A DNA stretch of 64,000 nucleotides from an uncultured virus (IMG/VR IMGVR_UViG_3300008108_000202) (Duplodnaviria > Heunggongvirae > Uroviricota > Caudoviricetes): the IMG/VR virus record IMGVR_UViG_3300008108_000202; one strand, written 5' to 3'. Positions 1-22,088 of this stretch are shown piece after piece. Numbering within the stretch: position 1 is the first letter of the stretch; every line of letters begins with the position of its first letter. A program made the translations under genes and the position numbers. The notes beneath the pieces were generated by a model. That model had not been told where the DNA came from. It was given only the letters and a program-made list of their open reading frames with translations, and did not search any database.

Positions 1-222
1 ATCATATCCTTTATTATCTTGTAACCATTTTGCTCTTTCTTCTAAACTCAACTCTCGTTCTTGAATTTTTAGTCCCCACTTTTCAGAGAACTCAGGATCC
101 GTTTTACATTTGTTGATGAATTCTTCTTTAGTCCAAGCAGTATCTTTATACAGAATATGATTTTTTTCTCTATAACTCTCATACGCCTCATCAATAATCT
201 GATTGTATCTTTCTTTACTCAT
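1..222 (-). CDS. ESYE-family paralog (partial, runs off window)
   Basis: Hand translation MSKERYNQIIDEAYESY...KEEFINKCKTDPEFSEKWGLKIQERELS shares the family blocks. Confidence 0.85.
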   Translation of the reverse strand, partial: MSKERYNQIIDEAYESYREKNHILYKDTAWTKEEFINKCKTDPEFSEKWGLKIQERELSLEERAKWLQDNKGYD

Positions 223-403
223 AACTTTCTATTTTATATCTTATATCTGTTCTATATTCATGTCTATCATAATAAGGCCAAATCATCTGACCTTCTTCAG
301 TTTCTTTAAACATTATTTCTATTTGAAAAGAATCTAACTGATACATATCTTCAGTAAACCATTGATATCCATTGGAAAAATATCTTATTTGTTTCTTACT
401 CAT
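215..403 (-). CDS. hypothetical protein ending in the ESYE junction repeat
   Basis: 62 aa ORF with stop/start overlaps at both ends. Confidence 0.75.
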   Translation of the reverse strand: MSKKQIRYFSNGYQWFTEDMYQLDSFQIEIMFKETEEGQMIWPYYDRHEYRTDIRYKIESYE

Positions 404-809
404 AACTTTCTATTGTTTCGTTGTTATATGTTAGTGTGATTAGTTTGGTTGGTATGTTATTTCTATCCCAAGATTCAACCGTCATGGGTGATACAAACTC
501 AGAATCATACTTAGCCAATTTTCTTCTTTCTTCCAAACTCAACTCTCGTTCCTCAATCTTTAGTCCCCACTTTTCAGAGAACTCTGGATTGATTTTACAA
601 ATATTAACGAACTCTTCTTTTGACATCTTTTTACCTGTACCAGGAATACAATCTTTCTCAAAATTCTTATACACCTCATCAATGATCTGATTGTATCTTT
701 CTTTTGATGTGATGTATTTATTAACAATTCTCTCAATCCCGATTGAGGTGTACCCAAGTTTTTTGTCTTGATTAACCCAAGTCATAAAGTCCAATAATTC
801 TTTATTCAT
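396..809 (-). CDS. ESYE-family paralog
   Basis: YNQIIDE / FSEKWGLKIEERELS / PTKLITLTYNNETIESYE blocks. Confidence 0.9.
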   Translation of the reverse strand: MNKELLDFMTWVNQDKKLGYTSIGIERIVNKYITSKERYNQIIDEVYKNFEKDCIPGTGKKMSKEEFVNICKINPEFSEKWGLKIEERELSLEERRKLAKYDSEFVSPMTVESWDRNNIPTKLITLTYNNETIESYE

Positions 810-1191
810 AACTTTCCAGTGTTTCTTTGTTGTATGTTAGTACTGTTAGTTTGGTTGGGATGTTTTGTTGGTCTAACTCAAAATCTTTCCAATCAGATTT
901 CATAAAAGGGTTATTACCATTTAAATGAATTTTAAACCACTCATTTCTTTCTTGGGTACTCAACTCTCTTTCCTCAATCTTTAATCCCCACCTTTCAGAG
1001 AACTCAAAACCTGACTTACATTTGTTGATGAACTCTTCTTGTGATAATAATCTAGGGGTTGCATGGTAAATAGGTCCTTCTACAACTATAATGTCTTTAT
1101 TGATTTCTAAATTAAGATTTAATCCTTTGGTTTTATCAATAAAATTCTTATAAACCTCATCAATAATCTGGTTGTATTTTTCGTTATTCAT
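802..1191 (-). CDS. ESYE-family paralog
   Basis: Same three blocks; start moved to MNNEKYNQ at 1191. Confidence 0.88.
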   Translation of the reverse strand: MNNEKYNQIIDEVYKNFIDKTKGLNLNLEINKDIIVVEGPIYHATPRLLSQEEFINKCKSGFEFSERWGLKIEERELSTQERNEWFKIHLNGNNPFMKSDWKDFELDQQNIPTKLTVLTYNKETLESYE

Positions 1192-1192
1192 A

Positions 1193-1555
1193 TTACCATC
1201 TATTTTGTTTCCATTTATCATCACCCTGATCTTCCAACTTTCTAACGATACTTAAGGCTTCTTGTGCAGTTGGTGTTTTAACATCAAAATCATAAGCAAT
1301 TCTACCGACAGAATAAACTAAATACTTGAGGTATTTTCTTTCTAATTCAAGTGTATGTTCAGAATCATAAGGTATTTTCATTGCAGAATTGTCATCAGAA
1401 AAATATAAAGACATATAAAAAGGGTTGACAATATCTAATAATTCCGTAAACCATTCTTTTGATACCCTTTCAAATGTTTTTCTACTGGCTGATGTAATCC
1501 AGGTATTGGTACTACTCCATTCCTCTTTTGTTAATGTTATTGATATTTTATTCAT
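1193..1555 (-). CDS. hypothetical protein
   Basis: 120 aa ORF coupled to neighbours. Confidence 0.75.
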   Translation of the reverse strand: MNKISITLTKEEWSSTNTWITSASRKTFERVSKEWFTELLDIVNPFYMSLYFSDDNSAMKIPYDSEHTLELERKYLKYLVYSVGRIAYDFDVKTPTAQEALSIVRKLEDQGDDKWKQNRW

Positions 1556-1907
1556 ATGTCTCTATTGTTTCGTTGTTGTATGTTAGTGTGATTAGTTTGG
1601 TTGGACCAGGTAAGCTTTGTAATATAGTCATTAAATTAGATTCAGACAACTTATCTATATCTATTATCTTGGATTGATGTTTGGGATTGTAGTTTTGTTT
1701 TTCTAACCAATTATTATAAGCATGTGCTTGTTCCTTTAAGGATAACTCTCGTTCCTCAATTTTCAATTCCCACTTTTCAGAGAACTCAGGATCTGTTTTA
1801 CATTTGTTGATGAATTCTTCTTTAAGTAGAAAAGTAAGGTACATCACATGCTTATTTTCTTGATGGTACTTTTCATACACCTCATCAATAATCTGTTCTT
1901 TATTCAT
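1548..1907 (-). CDS. ESYE-family paralog
   Basis: Same three blocks. Confidence 0.9.
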   Translation of the reverse strand: MNKEQIIDEVYEKYHQENKHVMYLTFLLKEEFINKCKTDPEFSEKWELKIEERELSLKEQAHAYNNWLEKQNYNPKHQSKIIDIDKLSESNLMTILQSLPGPTKLITLTYNNETIETYE

Positions 1908-2197
1908 AACTTTTGTTTAATTTTTTCATATGATTTTTCTAAAGTGGAAAGTAGTTGTTCAACGGCATTTTCTCCTTCTCCAATAGCAATTTCTTCGTTA
2001 TTGTCTCCACATCCATCCACAATTTCAGAGGAAAATCCTGAACGATGTTGGTCTAAAGAAATATTAAACCAATGACAACTATGGGGGTATTTTTCGTGAT
2101 ACTCACCATCATAGTTTTTACCATAGAATACACCTAAATCTTCTAATTTAGTCATAATATCTATGAATCTTTTTCCTATCATTTCTTCTTTACTCAT
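1904..2197 (-). CDS. hypothetical protein
   Basis: 97 aa ORF with overlapping stop/start. Confidence 0.75.
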   Translation of the reverse strand: MSKEEMIGKRFIDIMTKLEDLGVFYGKNYDGEYHEKYPHSCHWFNISLDQHRSGFSSEIVDGCGDNNEEIAIGEGENAVEQLLSTLEKSYEKIKQKL

Positions 2198-2678
2198 AAC
2201 TTTCTATTGTTTCGTTGTTGTATGTTAGTGTGATCAGTTTGGTTGGGATGTTTTTTTCATTTAACCATTGGGTGGTTTTTTCATCTTCCTCCATTAATAA
2301 AGGTGCATTGGATTTTAAAGAATTAACAATGTGTTTTATTCTCTCGTTAAAACTCAACTCTCTTTCTTCAATCTTTAGTCCCCATTTTTCAGAGAACTCA
2401 GGATCTGTTTTACATTTGTTGATGAATTCTTCTTTATCCAATTCCCATTGTCTATCATCTCTCATATATTCGTAATAATTCTCATAAGCCTCATCAATAA
2501 TCTGATTGTAGATATTTACTTCATCCCATTCTTTGTGTTCGTTATCACCAACTAGTTTATAGTATTTACCTTCATATTCCCATATACAATCCCAATTTTC
2601 TTTTACTCTTGGATTATTTGGATATGCTCTACCTGATTGGTCGTAATTCAATTTTCCTTTTTTAATTTTCATAATCAC
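2190..2678 (-). CDS. ESYE-family paralog with unrelated N-terminal extension
   Basis: About 55 unique residues, then the family blocks. Confidence 0.88.
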   Translation of the reverse strand: MIMKIKKGKLNYDQSGRAYPNNPRVKENWDCIWEYEGKYYKLVGDNEHKEWDEVNIYNQIIDEAYENYYEYMRDDRQWELDKEEFINKCKTDPEFSEKWGLKIEERELSFNERIKHIVNSLKSNAPLLMEEDEKTTQWLNEKNIPTKLITLTYNNETIESYE

Positions 2679-2688
2679 TCATAACTTT

Positions 2689-2931
2689 CTATTGTTTCGT
2701 TGTATTTCCAAAGTGTGATATATCATAGGATATTTTTTCTGTTTCTTCAACAGTATTATCATCTTTTATTTTACCAATGGCTCTTGATGATACCCAAATT
2801 GTTTGATTTTGAGTAAGTAGTTCATTTACCTTTTTTGATGACTCACCATCATTAAATTGAATGGTCTTTCCTTCGTCTGTCGTGTATCCGACAATTTCAC
2901 CATTATATTTTACAGGGATATCTTTACTCAT
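2689..2931 (-). CDS. hypothetical protein ending TTKQ in the junction repeat
   Basis: 80 aa ORF; reads the junction repeat in an alternative frame. Confidence 0.75.
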   Translation of the reverse strand: MSKDIPVKYNGEIVGYTTDEGKTIQFNDGESSKKVNELLTQNQTIWVSSRAIGKIKDDNTVEETEKISYDISHFGNTTKQ

Positions 2932-3475
2932 AACTTTCTATTGTTTCGTTGTTGTATGTTACTGTGATTAGTTTGGTTGGAACCAATGTAGTACTTCCTT
3001 TTAACATTGGATTTGTTTGGTCTATTTGTTTCAATATTTCTCGTTCTTCAATCTTTAATCCCCACTTTTCAGAGAACTCAGGATCTGTTTTACATTTGTT
3101 GATGAATTCTTCTCTTAAATAAAGGTGATGTCTAGGACTACCATCAAAATAGAAATCTTCTTTCATCCACTTTGTGTCCAAACAATTTCTTAAATAATTT
3201 GTATTAGCCTCATCAATGATCTGGTTGTATGTTCTACTCACATCTTCCAAGTTTTCACCAGTAAAAGATTTGAATCTGATTTTAAGATTATCTATTGTAT
3301 CAAGTTCAATACCATAAGGTTCGTGGTCTGTGTTTAGTTGATATAGTTCTTTATCAGGTGTTATGATAATCTTAAAATTATCATTTTCTTTGTGAAAGAA
3401 CTTATGTCCGAGTTGTTCATCTTTTCCGTATTGAACAAAGTATTGTGTTATTTGGTTCAAATCTTTTATGTCCAT
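2924..3475 (-). CDS. ESYE-family paralog with unrelated N-terminal extension
   Basis: About 80 unique residues, then the family blocks. Confidence 0.88.
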   Translation of the reverse strand: MDIKDLNQITQYFVQYGKDEQLGHKFFHKENDNFKIIITPDKELYQLNTDHEPYGIELDTIDNLKIRFKSFTGENLEDVSRTYNQIIDEANTNYLRNCLDTKWMKEDFYFDGSPRHHLYLREEFINKCKTDPEFSEKWGLKIEEREILKQIDQTNPMLKGSTTLVPTKLITVTYNNETIESYE

Positions 3476-3513
3476 CTTTTTATATTTTTAGTTGATTAAA
3501 TTTTTACATACTT

Positions 3514-3563
3514 ATAACAAATGATAAACAACATTAAAACGATTGTTGATCATCGGACGTTAT
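3514..3563 (+). repeat. attC-like site A (short type)
   Basis: ataac-aa-atgataaacaa-loop-ttgttgatcat-cggac-gttat. Confidence 0.8.
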
Positions 3564-3571
3564 ATTCAATA

Positions 3572-3859
3572 TTAATTTTTTAACTTATGTTCAAAGTATA
3601 ATTCTCTGTACATCTTATGTTGTTTTCCGTAAAAATCAGCTAAGAAAAAATTCCAATTATCATCACCATTTTTACCTATTAACATAGCATGTATATTTTG
3701 TAGTTTCATATACATCATCGCAACTTTCCCATAATTGTCAGGATTATTTTTTAACTTATTAATATCATCCAATTGTTTTTCTAATTCAGTTTTAGGTATA
3801 ATCAACCTCATAAACTTTAAAAAATAATCCTTAATTTTTTCTTTTGTTTTCATAATCAT
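3572..3859 (-). CDS. cassette-borne hypothetical protein
   Basis: 95 aa ORF filling the A-B interval. Confidence 0.8.
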   Translation of the reverse strand: MIMKTKEKIKDYFLKFMRLIIPKTELEKQLDDINKLKNNPDNYGKVAMMYMKLQNIHAMLIGKNGDDNWNFFLADFYGKQHKMYRELYFEHKLKN

Positions 3860-3881
3860 AATCCAAAAATTAATACTAAAT

Positions 3882-3962
3882 ATAACAACAAATATAAGAA
3901 ATAAATCTTACTTTGTCTAATTTTTAATGAAAAGATTTACTTCTCATATTTGCAGACGTTAT
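3882..3962 (+). repeat. attC-like site B (long type)
   Basis: Stem caaatataagaaataaatctt / aagatttacttctcatatttg (19 of 21; both mismatches G-T on the minus strand) between ataac and gttat. Confidence 0.8.
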
Positions 3963-3970
3963 GTGTAATA

Positions 3971-4168
3971 TTATTTTTGTTTTGAGTTATCAGTTAAATA
4001 GTTTAATATTTTTTTGATTTTAACTATTTGTCTTCTCCAATTTAATTTTTGTTCATAACAATATATTGAACTAAAATAAATTAATATGGATAAATTTAAA
4101 TTATTATCTTCATTATTTAATTGAAACCCCATTCGTTCTTGGAACTCTTCAAAACTTTCTTTTTTCAT
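3971..4168 (-). CDS. cassette-borne hypothetical protein
   Basis: 65 aa ORF ending SKQK, filling the B-C interval. Confidence 0.75.
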   Translation of the reverse strand: MKKESFEEFQERMGFQLNNEDNNLNLSILIYFSSIYCYEQKLNWRRQIVKIKKILNYLTDNSKQK

Positions 4169-4210
4169 ATACTTAATTTTTTAATCGGTAAAACAAAAAT
4201 AATACAACTT

Positions 4211-4260
4211 ATAACAAATGATAAACAACATTAAAAAGATTGTTGATCATCGGACGTTAT
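4211..4260 (+). repeat. attC-like site C (short type)
   Basis: Near-identical to site A. Confidence 0.8.
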
Positions 4261-4330
4261 ATGTAAGTGTTCCGTTCATCGTTCTAATCAACTCGTTGAA
4301 AATTTTAAAAGAAAAATCCCACTCACTTTT

Positions 4331-4843
4331 TTAGACGACTCTTATTTCAATTTTACCTCTACCATCTATGTAGTAATCATATATATCTTCATCACTTTTA
4401 TATATATCATCCAACCATTGTGAAACATCAAGTTTTTCTCCACCATATTTAGTTATCAATTTGTCAAGAACCTTTGTAGCATATTTACTTCTTTTCTGAG
4501 ATATTTCTTTACTGAATAATTGACTAACAAAACCTTTCATACCAATATCTTTTGAAGTTTTATATAATGTTTCATATATAGAAAATCCAATTCCTTTCCC
4601 AATATAATCATTATACAATTCTATATTATCAATAACTAACCAATTTTCCTCTATATAAAATCTTAATGTTCCGATTTTTTTATTATTCATATATAAATCT
4701 AAATTATCGGAGTAAGTTTCTATAAATGATATATTTATTTTTTTGAAGTTATTTTTCAATTGTTCATTAAAACTAATGTTCTCAATATTTTCATTCAAAA
4801 ACTCTCGTATCGTGGTTTTAATAAAATTTCTCAAATCTTTCAT
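4331..4843 (-). CDS. cassette-borne GNAT-like acetyltransferase
   Basis: IDNIEL...YIGKGIGFSIY acetyl-CoA loop; phage-type N-terminus IKTTIREFLNE. Confidence 0.65.
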   Translation of the reverse strand: MKDLRNFIKTTIREFLNENIENISFNEQLKNNFKKINISFIETYSDNLDLYMNNKKIGTLRFYIEENWLVIDNIELYNDYIGKGIGFSIYETLYKTSKDIGMKGFVSQLFSKEISQKRSKYATKVLDKLITKYGGEKLDVSQWLDDIYKSDEDIYDYYIDGRGKIEIRVV

Positions 4844-4958
4844 TTGTTTTTCTTTATATATAAATATTCAGAATTAAATCTTCCACCCATCTTTTTCTTT
4901 TAAAATTTTTGTTCAGTTCTCCGATTAAACATTCTACCTTAATTAACCACACCTACAC

Positions 4959-5050
4959 ATAACAAGGTGTATAAGAAAGTTTGCCATAAAGTTTAAGTGG
5001 TAATTTTGAAAGTTCATCTAAGCAAACCTTCTCATACACCCAACCGTTAT
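4959..5050 (+). repeat. attC-like site D (long type)
   Basis: Stem ggtgtataagaaagtttgc / gcaaaccttctcatacacc between ataac and caacc-gttat. Confidence 0.8.
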
Positions 5051-5058
5051 ATGAAATG

Positions 5059-5214
5059 TTATTTTTGTTTTGAGTATATTTCACTTGTTTTATTCACAGC
5101 ATCTTGCACACTCTCCATCCAAGTTTTAAGTATTGGTCTAAAATTGAAAATAGACATTTCAGCATCCCAAATAACTTTTGGTATTTCAATTTTAATGATC
5201 TTTCGGTCTTTCAT
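5059..5214 (-). CDS. cassette-borne small protein (51 aa, not in ORF track)
   Basis: Hand translation MKDRKIIKIEIPKVIWDAEM...EIYSKQK fills the D-E interval. Confidence 0.7.
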   Translation of the reverse strand: MKDRKIIKIEIPKVIWDAEMSIFNFRPILKTWMESVQDAVNKTSEIYSKQK

Positions 5215-5258
5215 AATTTATATTTTTTTAATAGGTAAAACAAAAACAACACATTCAT

Positions 5259-5308
5259 ATAACAAATGATAAACAACATTAAAACGATTGTTGATCATCG
5301 GACGTTAT
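5259..5308 (+). repeat. attC-like site E (short type)
   Basis: Identical core to site A, including downstream gttatattcaat. Confidence 0.8.
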
Positions 5309-5314
5309 ATTCAA

Positions 5315-5557
5315 TTAAACAGTCTTACCCATTTTATTTCGTTCATACCATACCCACAGACTATCTCTCCAAGGTGTGTCATTCATACCCCATTTTTGAG
5401 CATCAATTCTCATATCTTCTGGTAATTCCCAAAATAATTGTTCCATTTCTTCTTGGTTTAGATTTACTTTACCATTATCCCAAGTTACATCCAATATAAC
5501 ATCGTGGAAATGCGCCCAATCATTTTTGTCAAAGTTGTAATCTTCTATTTTATTCAT
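5315..5557 (-). CDS. hypothetical protein
   Basis: 80 aa ORF starting in a junction repeat. Confidence 0.75.
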   Translation of the reverse strand: MNKIEDYNFDKNDWAHFHDVILDVTWDNGKVNLNQEEMEQLFWELPEDMRIDAQKWGMNDTPWRDSLWVWYERNKMGKTV

Positions 5558-5563
5558 AACTTT

Positions 5564-5683
5564 CTATTGTTTCGTTGTTTTTAATAATTTAATTAACTTC
5601 TCATATTCATCAGGTGATTCTTTTTTTATTACCTCTAATTGATATGCGAGTGGTGTTAAATATTTTTCCTTTTTCTTACTCAT
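5564..5683 (-). CDS. 39 aa ORF between two junction repeats
   Basis: Hand translation MSKKKEKYLTPLAYQLEVIKKESPDEYEKLIKLLKTTKQ. Confidence 0.65.
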   Translation of the reverse strand: MSKKKEKYLTPLAYQLEVIKKESPDEYEKLIKLLKTTKQ

Positions 5684-5689
5684 AACTTT

Positions 5690-6076
5690 CTATTGTTTTG
5701 GTTTAACAGACCAACTCCAAAGTTTTATCCAATCTGGGTTTCCATTAATGATTGCCCGGTGTTGCCACTTAACCTCTCTCAAAGTTTGGTATGGTTTACC
5801 ATTATCATCACCATTGAATATTAATTTATCTCCTTCCCACACAGGTTTACCTTCAACATACATAACAGGATAAGGGTTTTCACTAACATCATTGTCGTTC
5901 ATATTGGGGTTTTCCATCCATTTCCGGAAATCCCACACCTTATTGTCAGGTGCAATTATATTATAATCTTCTTTATTCATATCTTCTTTCAATAGTTTTG
6001 ATGCTTTACCCTCCATCATTTCGGCAATATTTATTTTTGTTGTTGACGTATCATTTAAACCCATTTTGTCTAACAA
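5690..6076 (-). CDS. hypothetical protein
   Basis: 128 aa ORF ending PKQ in the junction repeat. Confidence 0.7.
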   Translation of the reverse strand: MLDKMGLNDTSTTKINIAEMMEGKASKLLKEDMNKEDYNIIAPDNKVWDFRKWMENPNMNDNDVSENPYPVMYVEGKPVWEGDKLIFNGDDNGKPYQTLREVKWQHRAIINGNPDWIKLWSWSVKPKQ

Positions 6077-6299
6077 CTCTCCGTCTTTGTTTTACCAGTA
6101 TTGTTACATTATCACCTTTTATCCCAAATGATTTCATAAACCATTCAATGGATTCTACCTCACCAAATATCCCATCAATTTCTATTTCATCACCGACTTT
6201 TATGTCAGGACAATTGTTATCAATAACATTGAATGTGTAAGTATCTCTCTGTAACACACTCATAAAGAACTTTTGGTATTTTTCTATTTTATATTTCAT
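6051..6299 (-). CDS. hypothetical protein
   Basis: 82 aa ORF. Confidence 0.7.
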   Translation of the reverse strand: MKYKIEKYQKFFMSVLQRDTYTFNVIDNNCPDIKVGDEIEIDGIFGEVESIEWFMKSFGIKGDNVTILVKQRRRVVRQNGFK

Positions 6300-6733
6300 T
6301 TTTTTTAATTCTGTTTTTCATAGATGTTTCTATTCTGTTCCATTTTACTGAAACCATCAATTTGTCCCTGTGTTAGTTTTTCAACCCACTCCTCAAAGTA
6401 ATGTACATATTTTGCGTGGTTGTGTCTAACCCAAGTTTCGTGTAACCACCTATAAAGTTCATCTGTCATCTTTTAAAATATGATTTAATTTTCATCCACA
6501 CTATTTCCGGATAATTCCATAACCACCAAAAAAATATATAAATTTTTTTCATCATAATCAAATGGTTTATCTTTTTGACCTTCCAATATTTTATCCAGCC
6601 ATTCTACAGCTTTTTGTTTCATATGATTTGTTTTAAGCAAACATTAACCAACCTATTGTTATTCCAGCAAATATGCCAACTATGGTACCTAGTATATACC
6701 ATTTCTCATTAAAGTCTTTCATCTTATTTTGAT

Positions 6734-6961
6734 TTAAAGCTTAATAATTTCACAATCATCTAAATATTTATAAGGTATTGTGACTCTGTGTTTTCCTCTG
6801 GGTGGTGAAAGTTTAATTAAATGACTATCATCTGCCTCTAAAATTAAATAATCATTTGTTTTTTCAATTACAAACCAAATTTTCGTTTTATCATTATGAC
6901 TGTAAAATCTTTTAGATGTAAAAGTTACAACATCACCAACCACACATTCTTCTTCTGTCAT
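6734..6961 (-). CDS. hypothetical protein
   Basis: 75 aa ORF flanked by 18-bp direct repeats. Confidence 0.7.
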   Translation of the reverse strand: MTEEECVVGDVVTFTSKRFYSHNDKTKIWFVIEKTNDYLILEADDSHLIKLSPPRGKHRVTIPYKYLDDCEIIKL

Positions 6962-6962
6962 C

Positions 6963-7481
6963 TTATTTTGATTTAAGTTTAAGTATTAAACAACCATCTG
7001 CATCAAGTTTTGGTTTAGGCTCAGGAGTATATTTGTCTCCTATAGCAACTTCTTCCATCTCAATCTCCACATCCCATTCAGTTTGTTGTCCACCAAAAGA
7101 ATTTATTAACTGGTCAAATAGCGTCCCACTTCTGTTTGTGTTGTATGCCACAAGCATCTGTTCCAAACTAAACTTCTTATCACCAAGAATTTCAAGTGCT
7201 TTTTGGAAACCTTTTTTAAACTCCAAAAGATTTGATTTATATAAAGCATATACAAACGAAGATGCTTTATTTAATTCTTCTTCTGTTGGATTCCCTAGAT
7301 GTTCTTTAGCCAATTCATCCAAATCATAACCATTCTCAATTGCTTGGCAGTTCTTTATTGACAATTTGTTATACTGACTTTCCCTTGATGTACCCAACGT
7401 ATAACCATCATCGTAAGTTCCTTTGGTTGGATCTACAAGGATATAATTTTCTTTTTCTGTTTTATAAAGTTTTGCTTTCAT
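6963..7481 (-). CDS. NCQAIE-family protein (paralog of 18391..18891)
   Basis: KLSIKNCQAIENGYDLDELA / QQTEWDVEIEME / PKLDADGCLILK blocks. Confidence 0.85.
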   Translation of the reverse strand: MKAKLYKTEKENYILVDPTKGTYDDGYTLGTSRESQYNKLSIKNCQAIENGYDLDELAKEHLGNPTEEELNKASSFVYALYKSNLLEFKKGFQKALEILGDKKFSLEQMLVAYNTNRSGTLFDQLINSFGGQQTEWDVEIEMEEVAIGDKYTPEPKPKLDADGCLILKLKSK

Positions 7482-7751
7482 CTTCTTCTTGTTCTTTTTC
7501 CATATTAATATTATACGCAATAGTTTAATATTTGTTACTTAATGAGTTAAGAATTTTTCTTTTAAGCCACAATCGTATTGTTTTTGAGCGGATGTTAGAT
7601 GTTGTGGGATGATGTTTTCCCAATCAATGTATAAATGAATAAATCTACCTAACCTCAAACGATCTTCTCCAACTTGAGGAATATACCACGTTTCCCCATT
7701 ATTTTTTTCTTCTATTTTAATTCTGTAGTGACTCATTTTTATTATAAATGT

Positions 7752-8087
7752 TTATTGATAAAATATAATAACTTCGTCTTTATAAATCAATTTGATTAGT
7801 TTGGTTGGTGTTGTTGGTTTGAAAGCTTCTTCTGTAATGTAAAGATTTTCCAATTCAACGTCAGTATACTTCATAACCCATTGGATCTTTTCTTCAAAGG
7901 TAATCTCCCGTTTATTAAGTCGGATTCCAAATAAAAACCCGAAACCATAGTTATTGGTTATTTCATTAACAAATTCTTCCTTTGTAAGATCCATTTCTTC
8001 CTCCAAGATAAATGGTTCATAATGATGAGTTTCATGATAATAATCATAGACCTCATCAATTATCTGATCGTATCTTTCTTTATTCAT
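7752..8087 (-). CDS. diverged ESYE-family paralog
   Basis: RYDQIIDEVY, KEEFVN and PTKLIKLIY blocks. Confidence 0.8.
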   Translation of the reverse strand: MNKERYDQIIDEVYDYYHETHHYEPFILEEEMDLTKEEFVNEITNNYGFGFLFGIRLNKREITFEEKIQWVMKYTDVELENLYITEEAFKPTTPTKLIKLIYKDEVIIFYQ

Positions 8088-8886
8088 CGTCTCTCAAATC
8101 AATCGTAATATACTCAGGGAAAAGTTGATCCATCCCCACACCCAAACAAACTTTAAATAATTGCGTGTCATCCGATTCCTCACTTATATAAGGTAAGTCT
8201 TCATCAGGTAATGTATTAGAAACCCCCTCAAGGGCCTTATCTAATTTAGCGTTTTCTTGAGCGGCTTTCATAATTTTATCCGTTCCTTCTTTAATAGCCG
8301 CTTCTGCTCTATCATTTTTCCAATCTTCACTCATATTTATCTTTGTTTTGAAGTTCTTTCAATTCCTTTTTATACTCGTCTATCAACCTACCATTTTTCA
8401 CAATCGTTTCTGTAAATAATCTTGAATCTTTTTGTGACGCCTCGATAACATCATTCTTTAGATGCCGTATGATAATTTTAATTTCATCTACTCTATCCAT
8501 ATTTTTCAGTGTTTTTTCTTTATTCATTTTTATCTTTGTTTTCAAATTTTAGTATCATTAACATTAGACAAGATCCAACACCTTCAGCCGCCTTCCAATC
8601 AAACCCTTCGCTTTCAGGAGTCCAATTTTTATATTCCCACCAAAGTTCAAAAGTTTCTATGGCTAACTCTTTAATTTTATCAGGCAGATTCATATTTTGA
8701 ATTTTTAATCTACCGTCTTTATAGTTTAACCCATCAAATCTCTTCTTTGCCAATTCTTTAAGTTCTTTTTTATTCATCTGTTCCTAAGTTTTTTAATCCT
8801 TCAATAACTTCCTTATTATCATCTGTCTTCTCACTCCAAAACATCATATGTTTGAGTAAGTCATTTCCATCAATTTTAATATTCAT
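8080..8886 (-). other. run of small coupled hypothetical ORFs (8080-8334, 8327-8545, 8520-8777, 8770-8886)
   Basis: Overlapping stop/start junctions; two end in NKDKxE. Confidence 0.7.
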
Positions 8887-8892
8887 AACTTT

Positions 8893-9141
8893 CTATTTTT
8901 CGTTGTTGAATGTTGGACCACTGAATCCAGGAATATACATAATTCGCATAGCTGTGGTTTCTGCTTGTTCTTGGCTATATCCTTTATCTAGGTACTTTTG
9001 AATCAAGTCGTTCTTTATTTTAATTTCTTCATCAATACTAACTTTAAATTCTTCTACTGACATCCCTCTGGATTTAGCTATACCTTCAATTGAATATCGT
9101 TCTGCTAAACTTCTTCTTGGTGAAAATTCTTCTTTATTCAT
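8893..9141 (-). CDS. hypothetical protein
   Basis: 82 aa ORF between two junction repeats. Confidence 0.75.
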   Translation of the reverse strand: MNKEEFSPRRSLAERYSIEGIAKSRGMSVEEFKVSIDEEIKIKNDLIQKYLDKGYSQEQAETTAMRIMYIPGFSGPTFNNEK

Positions 9142-9526
9142 AACTTTCTATTGTTTCGTTGTTGTATGTTAGTGTGATCAGTTTTCTGGGTATGGAATTG
9201 TCCATATCAACTGTTTCTCTAATCATATTCCATCCAATTCCACCTCCATTTTCGTAATCATATCCAGCAAAAATTATTCGTTCTTTTTCACTCAATTCTC
9301 TTTCTTCAATCTTTAATCCCCACTTTTCAGAGAACTCAGAATCGGTTTTACATTTGTTGATGAATTCTTCTTTTGATAATAATTCAATAAGAATAACTCT
9401 TACTCGTTTCCCTTGACTCCTTAATCTATTAACTTCTTCTTTCTGTATTTCCCTTTGACGAATAATTTCTTTCTTGTAATTCTCATACGCCTCATCAATA
9501 ATCTGGTTGTATATTTCTTTATTCAT
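9134..9526 (-). CDS. ESYE-family paralog
   Basis: Same three blocks. Confidence 0.9.
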   Translation of the reverse strand: MNKEIYNQIIDEAYENYKKEIIRQREIQKEEVNRLRSQGKRVRVILIELLSKEEFINKCKTDSEFSEKWGLKIEERELSEKERIIFAGYDYENGGGIGWNMIRETVDMDNSIPRKLITLTYNNETIESYE

Positions 9527-18891: not shown

Positions 18892-20040
18892 ACTTATTTA
18901 ATTTTTTCAATTCATTAAGAAAATCAAGTAATTGACCCGTCATAAACGCATCAAAGTCTTCTTGATTTTCCCTTGGAAATGCCGATAAAAAGGTCTTTTC
19001 AAAAGGATCCATAGGATAAAAATAAAATCCTTTTTTTATCTTCTTCTTTTTCTTTCTTGGTATTCTAAATTTTTTCATGTTATTTATCATAAACTTTTAA
19101 ACCATATTCTCCCGACTCTGACTCCCATCCACATTCCGGATCCATATTGGTACAGAAGTAGAACTCATAGTCTCCATTATCATCGGTGGCTATATCATAT
19201 GATCCACAGTTAGGGCATGGTATAGCATCATCTTCCATTTGTTTTGTAATGTCATAAATAAAATCCATGAATTTATCACCCGTATTATGTTTCATATTAT
19301 TCTGATTTTCCATTTTATATTATTGTTTCTTTAACTATCACACCATCAATAAATCTTGACACAACAAAAGATTCAACAGATTCTTCTGAAGTTTGTAGTA
19401 ATGTAATTTCTTGTTGTAGGGCATCAAAGTCTTCTTGGGTAATTAATGTTCCTGACATAGATCCACCACCATTAATCATCTTTATCTTATAAGAACCATA
19501 TGGTTCTGTGTGGTGTTTTTCAACAATAATCAAATTATCATATTCAAAACCCTTTGATTCGTCCAATTTAACTAATTTACCATCATCATTTCTTTTATAA
19601 AACGCACTTCTGTGATAACCACAATCAGGACAAGATGAAAATAACTCACCTGTTTTGTAATAGAAATCCTCAAAACAACTTTCAGATTTACATCTTGGAC
19701 ATTCAACATAACTAATAACGCTTCCCATAATTTATTTTTTTGTATATTTTCTAATTAAATTAAATATTTCTTTGATGTCTGTAAACTCTGATGGTGGTGA
19801 GTCATTTCTTCCTGGTAAAAACATCACTGTAAATCCGTGATTTGCTTGGAAGGTTTCGGTAACTCGTTTACCGCAGATCTCATTAAGATAAATCCAAGGA
19901 AAGTTTCCTGATAGTTTTACATCAATTCCTATTTTTTTAAGCCTTTCAATAAACACACCAAGTTTATCAGTACTTATTTTTGTGCTGTTTTTTGTTTCCA
20001 TTGTATATGTTCCAAATTTAGTTTTTACTTCTCCCTTCAT
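18872..20040 (-). other. four hypothetical ORFs (18872-19090, 19080-19313, 19315-19728, 19732-20040); two have CxxC zinc ribbons
   Basis: CPNC...FC and CPRC...CPDC motifs. Confidence 0.7.
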
Positions 20041-20488
20041 GATTTAATTACTTGGTCTCTAAAATAAACATCACTAATTACCATTCCGTCAATATTCTTA
20101 CCATTGCCAAGATGAATATAATTACCTTCAATTTTGGTAATCATACCATAATCTTCCACCAATCCTGTAATCCTATTAACCACCTTAACATAGTCACCTA
20201 CTTTGATGTCCCTTCCGTTTTCTGAGGTTTAATATTACTTCAAATTTTGATTACAAATTTCGTAATAATTCGTCTTTTTCATCTTTAAATCCTTGTTTTA
20301 TAAGGGTTTTTGAATAGGTGTTGATATATTATAGTTAGGTTCAATCATTAATTTGTTTTGAGTTTATTTCTTTTTTCATATTATACATTGCAAAACCACA
20401 CCAAATTAATTGTAGTGTTAAATAAATAATTATTCCTGTTTTCATATTCTTATTTTTTACAAAGGTAAAACAAATTAATGACAAAACC

Positions 20489-20537
20489 TAACAAATGATA
20501 AACAACATTAAAACGATTGTTTATCATCGGACGTTAT
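20489..20537 (+). repeat. attC-like site F (short type)
   Basis: Perfect 11-bp stem atgataaacaa / ttgtttatcat. Confidence 0.8.
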
Positions 20538-20740
20538 CGGCAATTCCTTTGTCGTTCCAATAGCCATTGTACTCCTTCTTCAAACCCATTTGCGTAATCA
20601 TCCATCCTTTGAACTGGTTCATCTCTGAATTTGTATGAAGCGTCAAATGATGCCTGTTCAATTTCCTTTTGCGATGGAACTGCCGATAACACCGTATTTG
20701 TGCTATTGGCGGTTTCGTTTTTCAAATTATCTTTTTCCAT
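20534..20740 (-). CDS. cassette protein starting inside the loop of site G
   Basis: 68 aa; stop TAA is formed by the GTTA core of site F. Confidence 0.75.
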   Translation of the reverse strand: MEKDNLKNETANSTNTVLSAVPSQKEIEQASFDASYKFRDEPVQRMDDYANGFEEGVQWLLERQRNCR

Positions 20741-20811
20741 ATTTTCAAGTTTGGTTTTTCAAATTAAGTTCTGTGGTTAAATCGCCAACAGACACAAATA
20801 CTTTTTCGTTA
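20686..20811 (+). repeat. attC-like site G (long type)
   Basis: gtatttgtg-ctattggcggttt / aaatcgccaacagacacaaatac with one extrahelical base. Confidence 0.8.
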
Positions 20812-21114
20812 GCAGAAATGTTTCTCCCCACAATTGTTACAGTACAGATACCTTACCGTTATTAGGTTATTTGAGGTATTTGGCTCGTCCGAACCATCAT
20901 CGTATTCTAATTCACTTACTATTTCTGTATCTGTACTTTCACAATCCTTACAAACACATCTGCTAACATCATGTATAAGCAATTCATTATCGCTTAAATC
21001 AATCTTGTAATTTTTCAAGTAAACGTCAACAACTCCTGTTGCATTTGCTTCATTTTCAAGCGACATCCAATTATTCACTCGAAGAAATTCTATTAGTTCC
21101 GTTCTTAAATCCAT
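20809..21114 (-). CDS. cassette protein starting inside the loop of site H; zinc-finger C-terminus
   Basis: 101 aa, CKDC...CNNC; stop lies in the GTTA core of site G. Confidence 0.75.
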   Translation of the reverse strand: MDLRTELIEFLRVNNWMSLENEANATGVVDVYLKNYKIDLSDNELLIHDVSRCVCKDCESTDTEIVSELEYDDGSDEPNTSNNLITVRYLYCNNCGEKHFC

Positions 21115-21155
21115 TGTAAAATAATATTAAACTGCTTATACATGAGTAACGTTAT
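20964..21155 (+). repeat. attC-like site H (coding loop of about 145 nt)
   Basis: Perfect 13-bp stem tcatgtataagca / tgcttatacatga. Confidence 0.75.
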
Positions 21156-21264
21156 AAACAATAAATTAAAATTTGTTCCACCCTAATCTTTCAACCCAAT
21201 CAGAAAAAGATTTTTCTTTCCCCTTATCAATAGGTTTATCTTCTCTCAAATGTTTTGGTATGTT

Positions 21265-21352
21265 ATAACAAGGTATATGTGAAATACCTCATAAAGTTTC
21301 TACTAAATTTAAATTTCTGTGGTAAGGTACTTCACATATACCCAACCGTTAT
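21265..21352 (+). repeat. attC-like site I (long type, related to D)
   Basis: ggtatatgtgaaatacct / aggtacttcacatatacc; caacc-gttat end as in D. Confidence 0.8.
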
Positions 21353-21359
21353 ACACAAT

Positions 21360-21617
21360 TTAATCTACAACGTGAATTTTCTCCTCAATTTTAACTATAC
21401 TTCTTTTATCGTGTTTTATGATTTCCATAGCATCATTATAACCATCATTAGGTAATCCACCTTTATTTAGCGTTATCCACCCATCAACTTCATCAAACAC
21501 TACCTGTTTTTTATCTAAAACACTTCTACGTTGTTCCAACACTCTACCTAAAAATTGAGGATAAAATTCACTCCTACCATCTTCAAACTTTTCTTCTTTA
21601 ATTCTATATTTTTTCAT
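21360..21617 (-). CDS. cassette-borne hypothetical protein
   Basis: 85 aa ORF filling the I-J interval. Confidence 0.8.
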   Translation of the reverse strand: MKKYRIKEEKFEDGRSEFYPQFLGRVLEQRRSVLDKKQVVFDEVDGWITLNKGGLPNDGYNDAMEIIKHDKRSIVKIEEKIHVVD

Positions 21618-21656
21618 TTTATTAAATTTTAGTTGTTAATTCCGATTAAACTGTGT

Positions 21657-21704
21657 ATAACAAATGATAAACAACATTAAAACGATTGTTTATCATAGGA
21701 CGTT
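21657..21704 (+). repeat. attC-like site J (short type)
   Basis: Near-identical to F; ends gacgtt. Confidence 0.75.
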
Positions 21705-21871
21705 TTACTTCCATAACATTCAAGTTTCTTATCCGTTACATTCCACAAATCTTTTTTTCCTTCCGTCATATGACAATTGTGTTTCTTTCCGGTTCTTTTT
21801 CCGAACTCCACAATCATATCATTATGACGATTACGGATGAGGTGAGGGCACTCTTTACAGGGTTTTTTCAT
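21677..21871 (-). CDS. small Cys-rich protein whose 3' end runs into site J
   Basis: MKKPCKECPH...HNCHM...C. Confidence 0.7.
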   Translation of the reverse strand: MKKPCKECPHLIRNRHNDMIVEFGKRTGKKHNCHMTEGKKDLWNVTDKKLECYGSKTSYDKQSF

Positions 21872-22088
21872 TTTCGTACTTTTTGGAAATTTCATCAACT
21901 CTTTTGATAATTGATGTTTTGGATCTATAATCCTGACAGAATATAGTTTTACCATCAAAGGTAATGGTCATAAAGACATTAAATCTGTCTTGACTTACAT
22001 TACGTAGTTTGATTGATAAATTACCATAGGTGAAGTACATAGTCCCTTCACTTTTAAGTTGTTTGTAATTAAAGTTGAACTTTTCCAT
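21855..22088 (-). CDS. hypothetical protein
   Basis: MEKFNF start just downstream of a TATCTTTG box (22093-22100). Confidence 0.7.
   Translation of the reverse strand: MEKFNFNYKQLKSEGTMYFTYGNLSIKLRNVSQDRFNVFMTITFDGKTIFCQDYRSKTSIIKRVDEISKKYENEKTL

Follow-up and report, generated by a model that had tools for sequence, protein, structure and literature searches.

A probable recombinase-less remnant of an integron-like cassette platform in the genome of an uncultured large phage

We analyzed a stretch of 64,000 nucleotides (nt) of DNA from an uncultured virus (Caudoviricetes; IMG/VR record IMGVR_UViG_3300008108_000202), hereafter called the window, and found that its positions 20032-21702 probably represent the worn-out, recombinase-less remnant of a phage-borne integron-like cassette platform. 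Somewhat less firmly, we favor a broader view, according to which large phages of Bacteroidota-type hosts run an integron analogue of their own. In this analogue, a short Xer-like recombinase, without the domain thought to enable the use of hairpins, would capture and reshuffle single-gene cassettes at folded sense-strand hairpins with an AAC/GTT foot. The hairpin loops would carry start signals and N-terminal leaders, so that leaders are swapped, and the platform would decay repeatedly via stumps and homing-endonuclease insertions, leaving orphan arrays such as the two in the window. Integrons are regarded as bacterial devices that rely on one specialised integrase. If our view is correct, hairpin-based cassette capture arose, or survives, without the IntI-specific domain, the enzyme represents a new small recombinase with short structured sites, and there is a concrete mechanism for the fast turnover of small ORFans in the hyperplastic regions of phage genomes. 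The window adds a stage of decay, i.e., a platform minus its enzyme, a platform-free allele in relatives, and cassette-level variants in lake populations.

The five sites of the block, named F to J (20489-21705), share one layout on the + strand, namely TAAC, 1-3 nt, stem, loop, stem, 5-6 nt, and GTTA, and all ten sites of the window fit it, with stems of 11-22 base pairs (bp) and loops of 11-133 nt. The five sites that a sequence-only reading of this DNA had listed here are real, their coordinates being off by about one base. Between the sites lie units, each with its own GTTA...TAAC inverted ends. A short hairpin (11-bp stem and 11-nt loop) occurs in five copies on the + strand (3521, 4218, 5266, 20495, and 21664), which is the number previously given for a ~50-bp short site; none is expected by chance (100 shuffles). 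A strict scan for the architecture across the 64-kilobase (kb) window returned eight + strand sites, all within two arrays and in one orientation, whereas it returned none on the - strand, none in the reversed sequence, and 1 per 20 Markov simulations. Sites G and J were detected under relaxed criteria only, where the background is 7-12 hits per 64 kb; site G has a bulged stem and spacers of 3 and 6 nt, and site J ends in GTTT. Folding with DNA parameters showed that every site forms a hairpin and that, for the long sites, the gene-sense strand gives the more stable fold. The three short-site copies of the first array (A, C, and E) have a stem mismatch and fold weakly (z about -1), and the sequence of site F is exactly the form that is most frequent among the short-site matches in IMG/VR.

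The ends of each unit are complementary to one another in a cassette-specific manner. They pair at 20533-47/20676-90 (14/15 nt, 93%), 20808-23/20952-67 (14/16 nt, 88%), and 21348-65/21644-61 (17/18 nt, 94%), in agreement with the F/G, G/H, and I/J pairings proposed before, and also at 20334-59/20467-92 (26 nt, 88%). In the window, cognate ends had a mean score of 9.6 (nine units), compared with 1.9 (standard deviation, 2.2) in 72 non-cognate combinations. The ends of the H/I unit are a weak pair (score of 3), and this 119-nt interval had rightly been taken for a decayed cassette: a related locus, L046, holds the unit in full, 166 nt longer and with an open reading frame (ORF) of 80 amino acids (aa). 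Among contigs of lake and freshwater metagenomes compared with positions 19900-21900, those of runs X1 and X9 likewise have 166 additional letters at 21262/21263. What was lost, in a clean deletion, is the 5' region together with the start codon and the initial 52 codons.

On the + strand, the block shows the order of an integron, i.e., a recombinase stump (pointing left), a junction (...TATAG|TTA), and five cassettes. Each cassette is a unit followed by its own site, with R'' TAAC, a short spacer, the stem, a variable loop, the stem again, a 5-nt spacer, and R' G|TTA. Genes of the cassettes are encoded on the opposite strand and run in the direction of the junction. If borders are placed at G|TT, the cassettes are 20335-20533 (34-aa ORF), 20534-20808 (68-aa ORF), 20809-21151 (101-aa ORF), 21152-21348 (decayed), and 21349-21702 (85-aa ORF), and each ORF falls entirely within one cassette. 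Cassettes two and three each have an ORF that begins in a hairpin loop (at 20740 in site G and at 21114 in site H) and ends at the border TTA. The sequence-only reading had overlooked the innermost cassette, the recombinase stump, and the conserved platform locus to which this second array belongs. The coordinates of all features are listed in Table 1.

Table 1. Features of the second array with its flanks, and of the first array, in the window
Feature	Position	Strand	Basis or remark
First array	3515..5307	-	One ORF per cassette
First-array sites	A 3515-3562, B 3883-3961, C 4212-4259, D 4960-5049, E 5260-5307	-	Scans, unit-end scores
9-nt direct repeat GAAGTAAAA, downstream copy	20023..20031	-	Other end of 1.67-kb block
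Trailing module, small ORF (20037-20183 or longer frame)	20032..20231	-	Site-free; no relative among loci
Tyrosine recombinase gene remnant, MKKTNYYEICNQNLK then stop	20232..20282	-	Translation; aligns with L162, G002
Array-end junction, attI-like region, TAAC|TATAATATATC	20283..20337	-	Alignment, 22 relatives and window
Innermost unit, 34-aa hydrophobic ORF (20341-20445)	20334..20492	-	26-nt inverted ends
Site F, short hairpin	20489..20536	-	Strict scan, fold
Unit F-G, body of 68-aa ORF (20534-20740)	20533..20690	-	Stop codon within GTTA border
Site G, 125-nt hairpin, stem about 18 bp, one bulge	20687..20811	-	-14.5 vs -13.3
Unit G-H, body of 101-aa ORF (20809-21114)	20808..20967	-	Stop TAA = TTA of GTTA border
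Site H, 191-nt hairpin, stem about 18-22 bp	20964..21154	-	Sense -22.8 vs antisense -17.3 kcal/mol
Unit H-I, decayed cassette remnant, 119 nt	21151..21269	-	L046 full unit; contigs of runs X1, X9
Site I, 86-nt hairpin, 18-bp stem	21266..21351	-	Sense -14.6 vs antisense -12.4 kcal/mol
Unit I-J, 85-aa ORF (21360-21617)	21348..21661	-	Ends 17/18; no Pfam/PHROG family
Site J, short hairpin, last site of array	21658..21705	-	DNA fold -7.4 kcal/mol, z -4.8
Site J outer box, hybrid with flanking gene	+ strand ...GGACG|TTTTAC		Junction with empty allele
9-nt direct repeat GAAGTAAAA, upstream copy	21703..21711	-	End of conserved part of 93-aa gene

Sites of this kind are present in many related viral loci. 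Matches to a 19-nt piece of the short site occur in at least 131 stretches from IMG/VR contigs that are 4-465 kb long, and also in one 462-kb uncultured phage; its core is near-invariant across contigs and its flanks differ, and sites of the I type recur in several other contigs. A blastn search against a phage collection gave a single 87-nt match. In 81 related loci (381 kb), the strict scan found 303 sites in the gene sense compared with a single one in the other orientation and 5 after reversal of the sequence, and 208 of the 303 (151 unique) are other than the canonical short site. Among 167 unique sites, lengths range from 48 to 301 nt (median, 89). The 170 units of these relatives (median, 301 nt) reach an end score of at least 7 in 72% of cognate pairs compared with 3.7% of non-cognate ones. 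Some short sites keep the loop TCGTTTTAATG on stems that are wholly different and yet compensated. Across 24 short sites, 9 of the 11 upper-stem pairs are altered on both sides, while the loop and the TAAC/GTTA borders are invariant; pairing is present in 98.3% of cells vs 78.9% after shuffling, and the covariation score is 0.499 vs 0.120 (0/500 shuffles reach 0.499). Selection thus acts on the structure of the sites and not on their sequence.

Given these controls, there is next to no prospect that we are looking at chance inverted repeats in AT-rich DNA (30% G+C). The same regions do hold many weak inverted repeats with 70-80% complementarity, and control sequences yield the 7-12 relaxed hits per 64 kb. 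However, the strict scan (8 vs 0, 0, and 0.05 in the window; 303 vs 1 and 5 in relatives) refutes this explanation, as do the covariation and the distance between cognate and non-cognate ends.

The mismatches tell which strand carries the structure. On the gene-sense strand of the 167 unique sites, stem mismatches are G.T (n = 168) and T.G (n = 32) rather than A.C (n = 6) and C.A (n = 5), and at the unit ends the corresponding counts are 114 and 29 vs 4 and 1, so the structure belongs to the sense strand, as DNA or as RNA. The G.T pairs also occupy fixed positions, being found in the stems at positions 13/14 (110 cases) and 8 (29 cases) among the 167 sites and at unit-end position 11 in 100 of 119 units, and they may serve as recognition marks.

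The hairpins could instead be RNA elements that act on the processing or stability of sense transcripts, with long-range pairing that brackets cistrons and with the recombinase as an unrelated neighbor. The RNase III sites of T7 early RNA are an example of processing sites between cistrons. We regard this as improbable. The strong G.U-type bias on the transcribed strand, in stems and unit ends alike, is what RNA elements would show, and the arrangement of stem, internal loop, and stem fits them as well. In addition, a metatranscriptome contig covers 20808-21122, although DNA is possibly present in such libraries. Against this, no Rfam family matched, and permissive thresholds gave only chance-level SL1. 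Moreover, the loops hold start codons and apparent upstream signals, and a transcript initiated within a loop would be missing the 5' arm. RNA elements also leave unexplained the presence or absence of whole cassettes, the junction beside the recombinase, and the 146-to-0 distribution of sites around it (see below). The two roles are not exclusive, and an RNA role in addition to recombination is possible.

The arrays are linked to a recombinase gene. Among five near-complete giant genomes with a short-site match, two have a Phage_integrase match, in both cases directly after an array. The encoded protein of these relatives has 268 aa, with Phage_int_SAM_4 and Phage_integrase domains, and its best families are XerA (NF040815; 178.8 bits, cut-off 220) and integron integrase (TIGR02249; 156.7 bits, cut-off 265). 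The closest solved structures are archaeal XerA (4a8e; E 9e-33) and then IntI4 (2a3v). The latter aligns in two blocks, between which query residues 179-213 (34 residues) stand opposite IntI residues 180-262 (82 residues), and the IntI insertion is therefore absent from the phage enzyme; the HxLRH and IYTH blocks are conserved and align with IntI4. By its sequence, the protein is classified as a tyrosine recombinase of the Xer/IntI clade. A protein search with it led to 41 loci with homologues at 54-100% identity, where 146 strict sites precede the gene on its own strand, compared with 0 in 181 kb of downstream sequence and 1 in the opposite orientation. Since some loci are near-identical to one another, not all of these counts are independent. 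A site is present in 30 of the 34 recombinase loci with at least 500 nt upstream, while 39 control loci with distant integrases hold 5 sites in 281 kb. Conversely, 20 of the 68 short-site loci of at least 4 kb contain the recombinase or a piece of it (short stumps only in 4 of the 20).

In all 22 aligned relatives, the last unit ends in TAAC|TATWATATATA, and the recombinase starts 45-60 nt further. Window positions 20337>20232 align throughout with this passage from the junction into the recombinase (L162 being closest), and the only exact match to the junction motif in the window is at 20323-20337. Positions 20282-20235 encode MKKTNYYEICNQNLK and then a stop, i.e., 15 codons that correspond to the N-terminus of the enzyme of genome G002 (MKKTNYYEICK). 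None of the 87 window ORFs scanned matched a tyrosine recombinase. Since the enzyme gene is cut to 15 codons, the window's array would change only via a recombinase acting in trans or via general recombination.

Stumps of the gene are found in the window and in L015, L036, L050, and L039. In G002 (L139 1162-2456), a 261-aa GIY-YIG-type gene, encoded on the other strand, divides the recombinase gene in two; the split in L180 is similar. In the 310-kb phage G005 (L138 2032-2727), a gene for a Sir2-family NAD-dependent deacylase lies directly downstream of the recombinase.

Comparison of alleles indicates that the block comes and goes as a whole. In L134-L137 (49% identity on the neighboring 414-aa gene), homologues of the 93-aa and 102-aa flanking genes abut without any site, so that all 1.67 kb of the block are either there or missing together. 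Relative to these loci, the window has 1672 bp extra (20032-21702 or thereabouts) flanked by the 9-nt direct repeat GAAGTAAAA. Other relatives show the platform in this neighborhood in further states: the array is followed by the recombinase, the 93-aa gene, and the 102-aa gene in L043 and L180; the recombinase directly precedes the 102-aa gene in L163-L166; an enzyme-free array lies between the 93-aa and 102-aa genes in L013 and L046; and L039 has the 93-aa gene, a site, a cassette, a C-terminal stump, and the 102-aa gene. In L046, a site of the I type stands directly at the 93-aa gene, and the J hairpin and the I-J unit are absent.

The metagenome contigs show comparable states within populations, among them variants that break at the borders of sites; regions that runs X9, X10, and X15 leave uncovered are uninformative. 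The empty allele appears as joints 20022>21703 with 9 shared letters (X9, X10) and 20032>21703 (X1), and the joint 20221>21706, with 16 letters between (X9, X10), brings the trailing module directly to the 93-aa gene. Other joints connect hairpin F to unit H-I (20530>21149; 7 shared letters, ACGTTAT), collapse F and J into one (20537>21704), replace the I-J unit (21353>21656), or exchange the ORF of the innermost unit while its arms stay constant (20359-64>20439-53). One joint (20537>21657, run X1) would put two short sites in tandem. Loose contig ends lie at 20331-4, 20537, 20808, 21154-6, and 21353. Contigs of a freshwater metatranscriptome (run X15) cover 20808-21122 (the 101-aa ORF, starting shortly before its ATG and reaching the border) and 20334-20462; since one of them runs into another context, they come from a related strain. 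The 26-nt inverted arms and the upstream region of the innermost unit (20334-20492) surround different ORFs in LR756500.1 (L001 2812-3056) and in metagenome contigs, so the ORF is replaceable inside constant arms.

The borders of exchanged units were compared in six pairs of homologous units with different neighbors. The 3' border lies at TAAC to +5 nt in five of the six and 12 nt before it in the sixth; in two pairs, the 5' border lies within shared hairpin arms or a shared hairpin. The unit common to L021 and L026 extends from TT|GTTA to TAAC| and is flanked by unrelated hairpins, L076 and L077 share one (100% identity) that ends after TAACGGTTG, and the window and L046 share one up to TAACGT. 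The events that can be oriented (the joint of F to H-I, and the absence of the J hairpin and I-J unit from L046) fit a cassette made of a hairpin and the unit downstream of it in the gene sense, which agrees with ORFs that start in loops. In integrons, the crossover falls between G and TT of the R' box, and a crossover at this point would be consistent with the G|TTTTAC of J, the TAG|TTTTTAC of the empty allele, and the TATAG|TTA of the junction, as well as with the ACGTTAT shared at one joint. Histograms of the end points of high-scoring segment pairs over all loci were dominated by conserved sites, and mechanisms are not separable in them.

Small repeated stem-loops between phage genes are familiar from the promoter early stem-loops (PeSLs) of T4-like phages, reportedly described by Arbiol in 2010. 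The hairpins of the window might be such composite terminator/promoter elements, with small early genes shuffled between them by general homologous recombination without any enzyme of their own. This explanation is unlikely, although less so than the RNA one. It accords with a short site that is near-invariant in more than 100 contigs, with the few recurring types of upstream region before different ORFs, with the collapse of the identical sites F and J in one contig (20537>21704), with exchange borders that sometimes lie in 5' regions or within ORFs, and with arrays in recombinase-free genomes. It is hard to reconcile, however, with the 151 unique non-canonical sites, which are alike in architecture and not in sequence; without a common sequence there is no homology for general recombination. 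The L021/L026 unit has moved between unrelated hairpins whose sole common elements are TAAC and GTTA. Such shuffling gives no function to the cassette-specific inverted ends, and the tight one-sided linkage to a tyrosine recombinase and the conserved junction are not explained by it. Moreover, 0 of the 5 sites score as intrinsic terminators, and a promoter scan (sigma-70-type only) gave 10 matches vs 10.9 in shuffled sequences. PeSL-type homologous shuffling may nevertheless add turnover at the identical short sites.

Compared with PeSLs, for which exchange by homologous recombination between like sequences is described in the parts of Comeau 2014 (PMC4122927) drawn on here, our arrays are similar in that small stem-loop motifs recur between the small genes that make up hyperplastic regions in large lytic phages, and mark points of gain, loss, and swap. 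They differ in that most sites here are unlike in sequence, each unit brings inverted ends of its own, and the arrays are linked to a recombinase gene.

Two further candidates were dropped. An IS200/IS605-type mechanism was abandoned because the Y1 HUH transposase (PF01797) was unmatched in five of five giant genomes, and invertible-promoter switches (invertons) were abandoned because the inverted repeats vary from unit to unit.

The closest known systems are integrons, above all sedentary chromosomal ones, and the clusters of attC sites lacking integron integrases (CALINs), which comprise at least two attC sites with no intact integrase nearby, attC being judged by the covariance model of IntegronFinder. 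Similar to these, the phage arrays have single-gene cassettes between imperfect hairpins in which structure is conserved over sequence. In both, an AAC...GTT pair forms the foot of the hairpin, an unpaired spacer and a variable loop come next, and each cassette begins with bases that can pair with the inverse core of its own site. Further likenesses are a recombinase of the Xer/IntI clade, with the same two Pfam domains, beside the junction at one array end and a better-folding strand that corresponds to the bottom strand of integrons; recombinase-less arrays are common as well.

There are also differences. The IntI family is marked by an IntI-specific insertion near the C-terminal catalytic region, whereas the phage enzyme is without the roughly 48 extra residues of IntI4 and scores 156.7 bits as an integron integrase, compared with a cut-off of 265. 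The complementary ends of the phage units are 15-26 nt long instead of 7, the spacers are asymmetric (5 nt vs 1-2 nt), and conserved G.T pairs at fixed positions may take the place of the extrahelical bases that set strand choice in integrons; regular bulges of the inner stem were not found, although site G has one. Integron cassettes are promoterless and read from a common promoter, with genes that point away from attI. Phage genes lie antisense to this convention and point to the junction, some of them starting in a hairpin loop, the array probably does not depend on a common promoter, and the host is a phage genome. The system works like an integron but falls outside membership by the enzyme feature, the full R-box consensus, gene orientation, and dependence on a common promoter.

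Xer recombinases act on folded single-stranded DNA when phages of the CTX type integrate at dif, a case of a whole phage and one chromosomal site without arrays or cassettes. The likeness to our system lies in an Xer-type enzyme without the IntI insertion and a hairpin folded from one strand as substrate, and the difference in single-site integration of a whole phage as opposed to arrays of cassettes.

Clusters of attC-like sites in virulent phages have been described before. As far as the portions of Qi et al. 2023 (PMC9892861) used here extend, attC clusters were found in 21 phages, including the flavobacterium phage Polaribacter phage P12002L, IntI1 recombined five of six tested phage sites at G|TTRRRY, and integron attC sites are said to be weak terminators too. 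The clustering of attC-like sites in phage genomes is shared with our arrays. In those portions, by contrast, phage CALINs are treated as parts of bacterial integrons, and no phage Xer-like recombinase, junction, or arrays of the present type appear (PMC9892861). Our full-text literature search, which covered main texts only, found no description of a phage-encoded Xer-like cassette platform.

The mechanism that we propose for relatives with the gene is as follows. The Xer/IntI-clade recombinase at the array end would recombine folded hairpins of the gene-sense strand, i.e., the 'bottom' strand of integrons, with a crossover at the conserved AAC/GTT triplet. Cassettes would be excised as circles and re-inserted at the junction or at other sites. 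The architecture of the sites and its covariation, the cassette-specific ends, the strand bias, the recombinase linkage, and the differences in block and cassettes among relatives are demonstrated here; we infer the action of this enzyme, the exact crossover point, and the single-stranded folded substrate.

Several observations weigh against an integron-like platform. The recombinase scores below the curated cut-offs of both XerA and IntI, and it lacks the IntI insertion. The R boxes read GTTAY...; among the 167 unique sites, RYYYAAC fits 17 and GTTRRRY fits 9, a comparison in which only the outer three positions were actually tested since the scan requires TAAC and GTTA. Three of the five near-complete giant genomes with a short-site match have no Phage_integrase match (one of the three, G006, retains a 39-aa recombinase stump), and in G002 the GIY-YIG gene splits the recombinase gene; arrays therefore persist without an intact enzyme. 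In addition, any gene bordering a variable region would give an equally one-sided pattern of sites, and the G.T bias fits RNA as well as DNA. Regarding the exchanges, the 5' border lies at TT|GTTA in only two of the six unit pairs and inside the 5' region or the ORF in two, and the 9-nt direct repeat suggests gain or loss of the block by ordinary microhomology rather than by a site-specific route. The population joints come from assembled contigs, and most have sides of fewer than 30 letters and may stem from other organisms or repeats.

Taken as a whole, the earlier proposal of a cassette array, in which the sites are attC-like and the complementary ends differ from cassette to cassette, is supported, and so is the claim that a genome can have arrays at several loci. 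Two arrays lie in the window, and two clusters of short-class sites are present in each of the complete relatives G005 and G006. In the five near-complete relatives, we counted 0-5 copies of the short-class pattern per genome (13 in all), in one or two clusters per genome except for the single site of G004. The genome-wide count suggested by the sequence-only reading thus did not reduce the short site to isolated terminators.

Our results do not support the idea that the short site might act as a docking site in place of attI, nor that it is the first and last site of both arrays. Site J is indeed the last site, but F is not an array end, as the cassette at 20334-20492 and then the junction lie beyond it. 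That reading had expected empty alleles with a single short site between the flanking genes, whereas the empty alleles found (L134-L137, and the 20022>21703 joints in X9 and X10) contain none. A different junction, TAAC|TATWATATATA, adjoins the recombinase in 22 of 22 aligned relatives, and it is in this junction that the second array ends. Next to the same flanking gene, L046 has a site of the I type. The short site is one of many interchangeable hairpins of like architecture.

The genes of the region all lie on the - strand, in a 30% G+C stretch of a large lake-water phage whose window encodes a sigma factor, DnaJ, DNA methylases, an RNA ligase, and a lysis amidase. Small ORFans of hyperplastic regions are likely host-takeover or counter-defence genes, but none here has a known family: no cassette ORF matched a Pfam family, and only the 80-aa ORF at 5315-5557 had PHROG matches, which were weak and of unknown function. 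The 101-aa ORF has three related clusters, and a homologue in other assemblies shows 93% identity over 99% coverage.

The first array shows no junction motif and no recombinase remnant. It is embedded in a run of at least seven paralogous small genes (window 1-9526) with repeated segments of 50-120 nt and a common stop-start overlap motif.

Among the relatives, many long loops (L006, L018, L065, L027, L076, L077, and others) encode ATG and about 20 codons. The 3' arm of long sites encodes a recurring peptide end (e.g., ..NLNISDV) that continues into the next unit, and L076 and L077 have one protein body behind two different leaders. L127 contains a fully palindromic variant of the short site, with both spacers complementary (...ATCATCGGACGTTA).

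The idea of a phage-borne platform is testable, as cultured flavobacterial phages with related recombinases exist, among them the Cellulophaga phages Ingeline. The Polaribacter phages Freya_1 to Freya_10 (L221 = MT732472.1 1-6000; L222, L223 = MT732463.1; record lengths, 43,978 to 48,920 bp) encode a recombinase that is 35.6% identical. In Freya_10, 4,079 bp with ten small co-oriented ORFs lie directly upstream of the recombinase gene, a stretch without a counterpart in the 3.5 kb upstream of the Freya_1 gene. A relaxed scan of 4.2 kb of Freya_10 gave two clear sites (900-1023 and 3791-3978) vs six weaker hits on the opposite strand.

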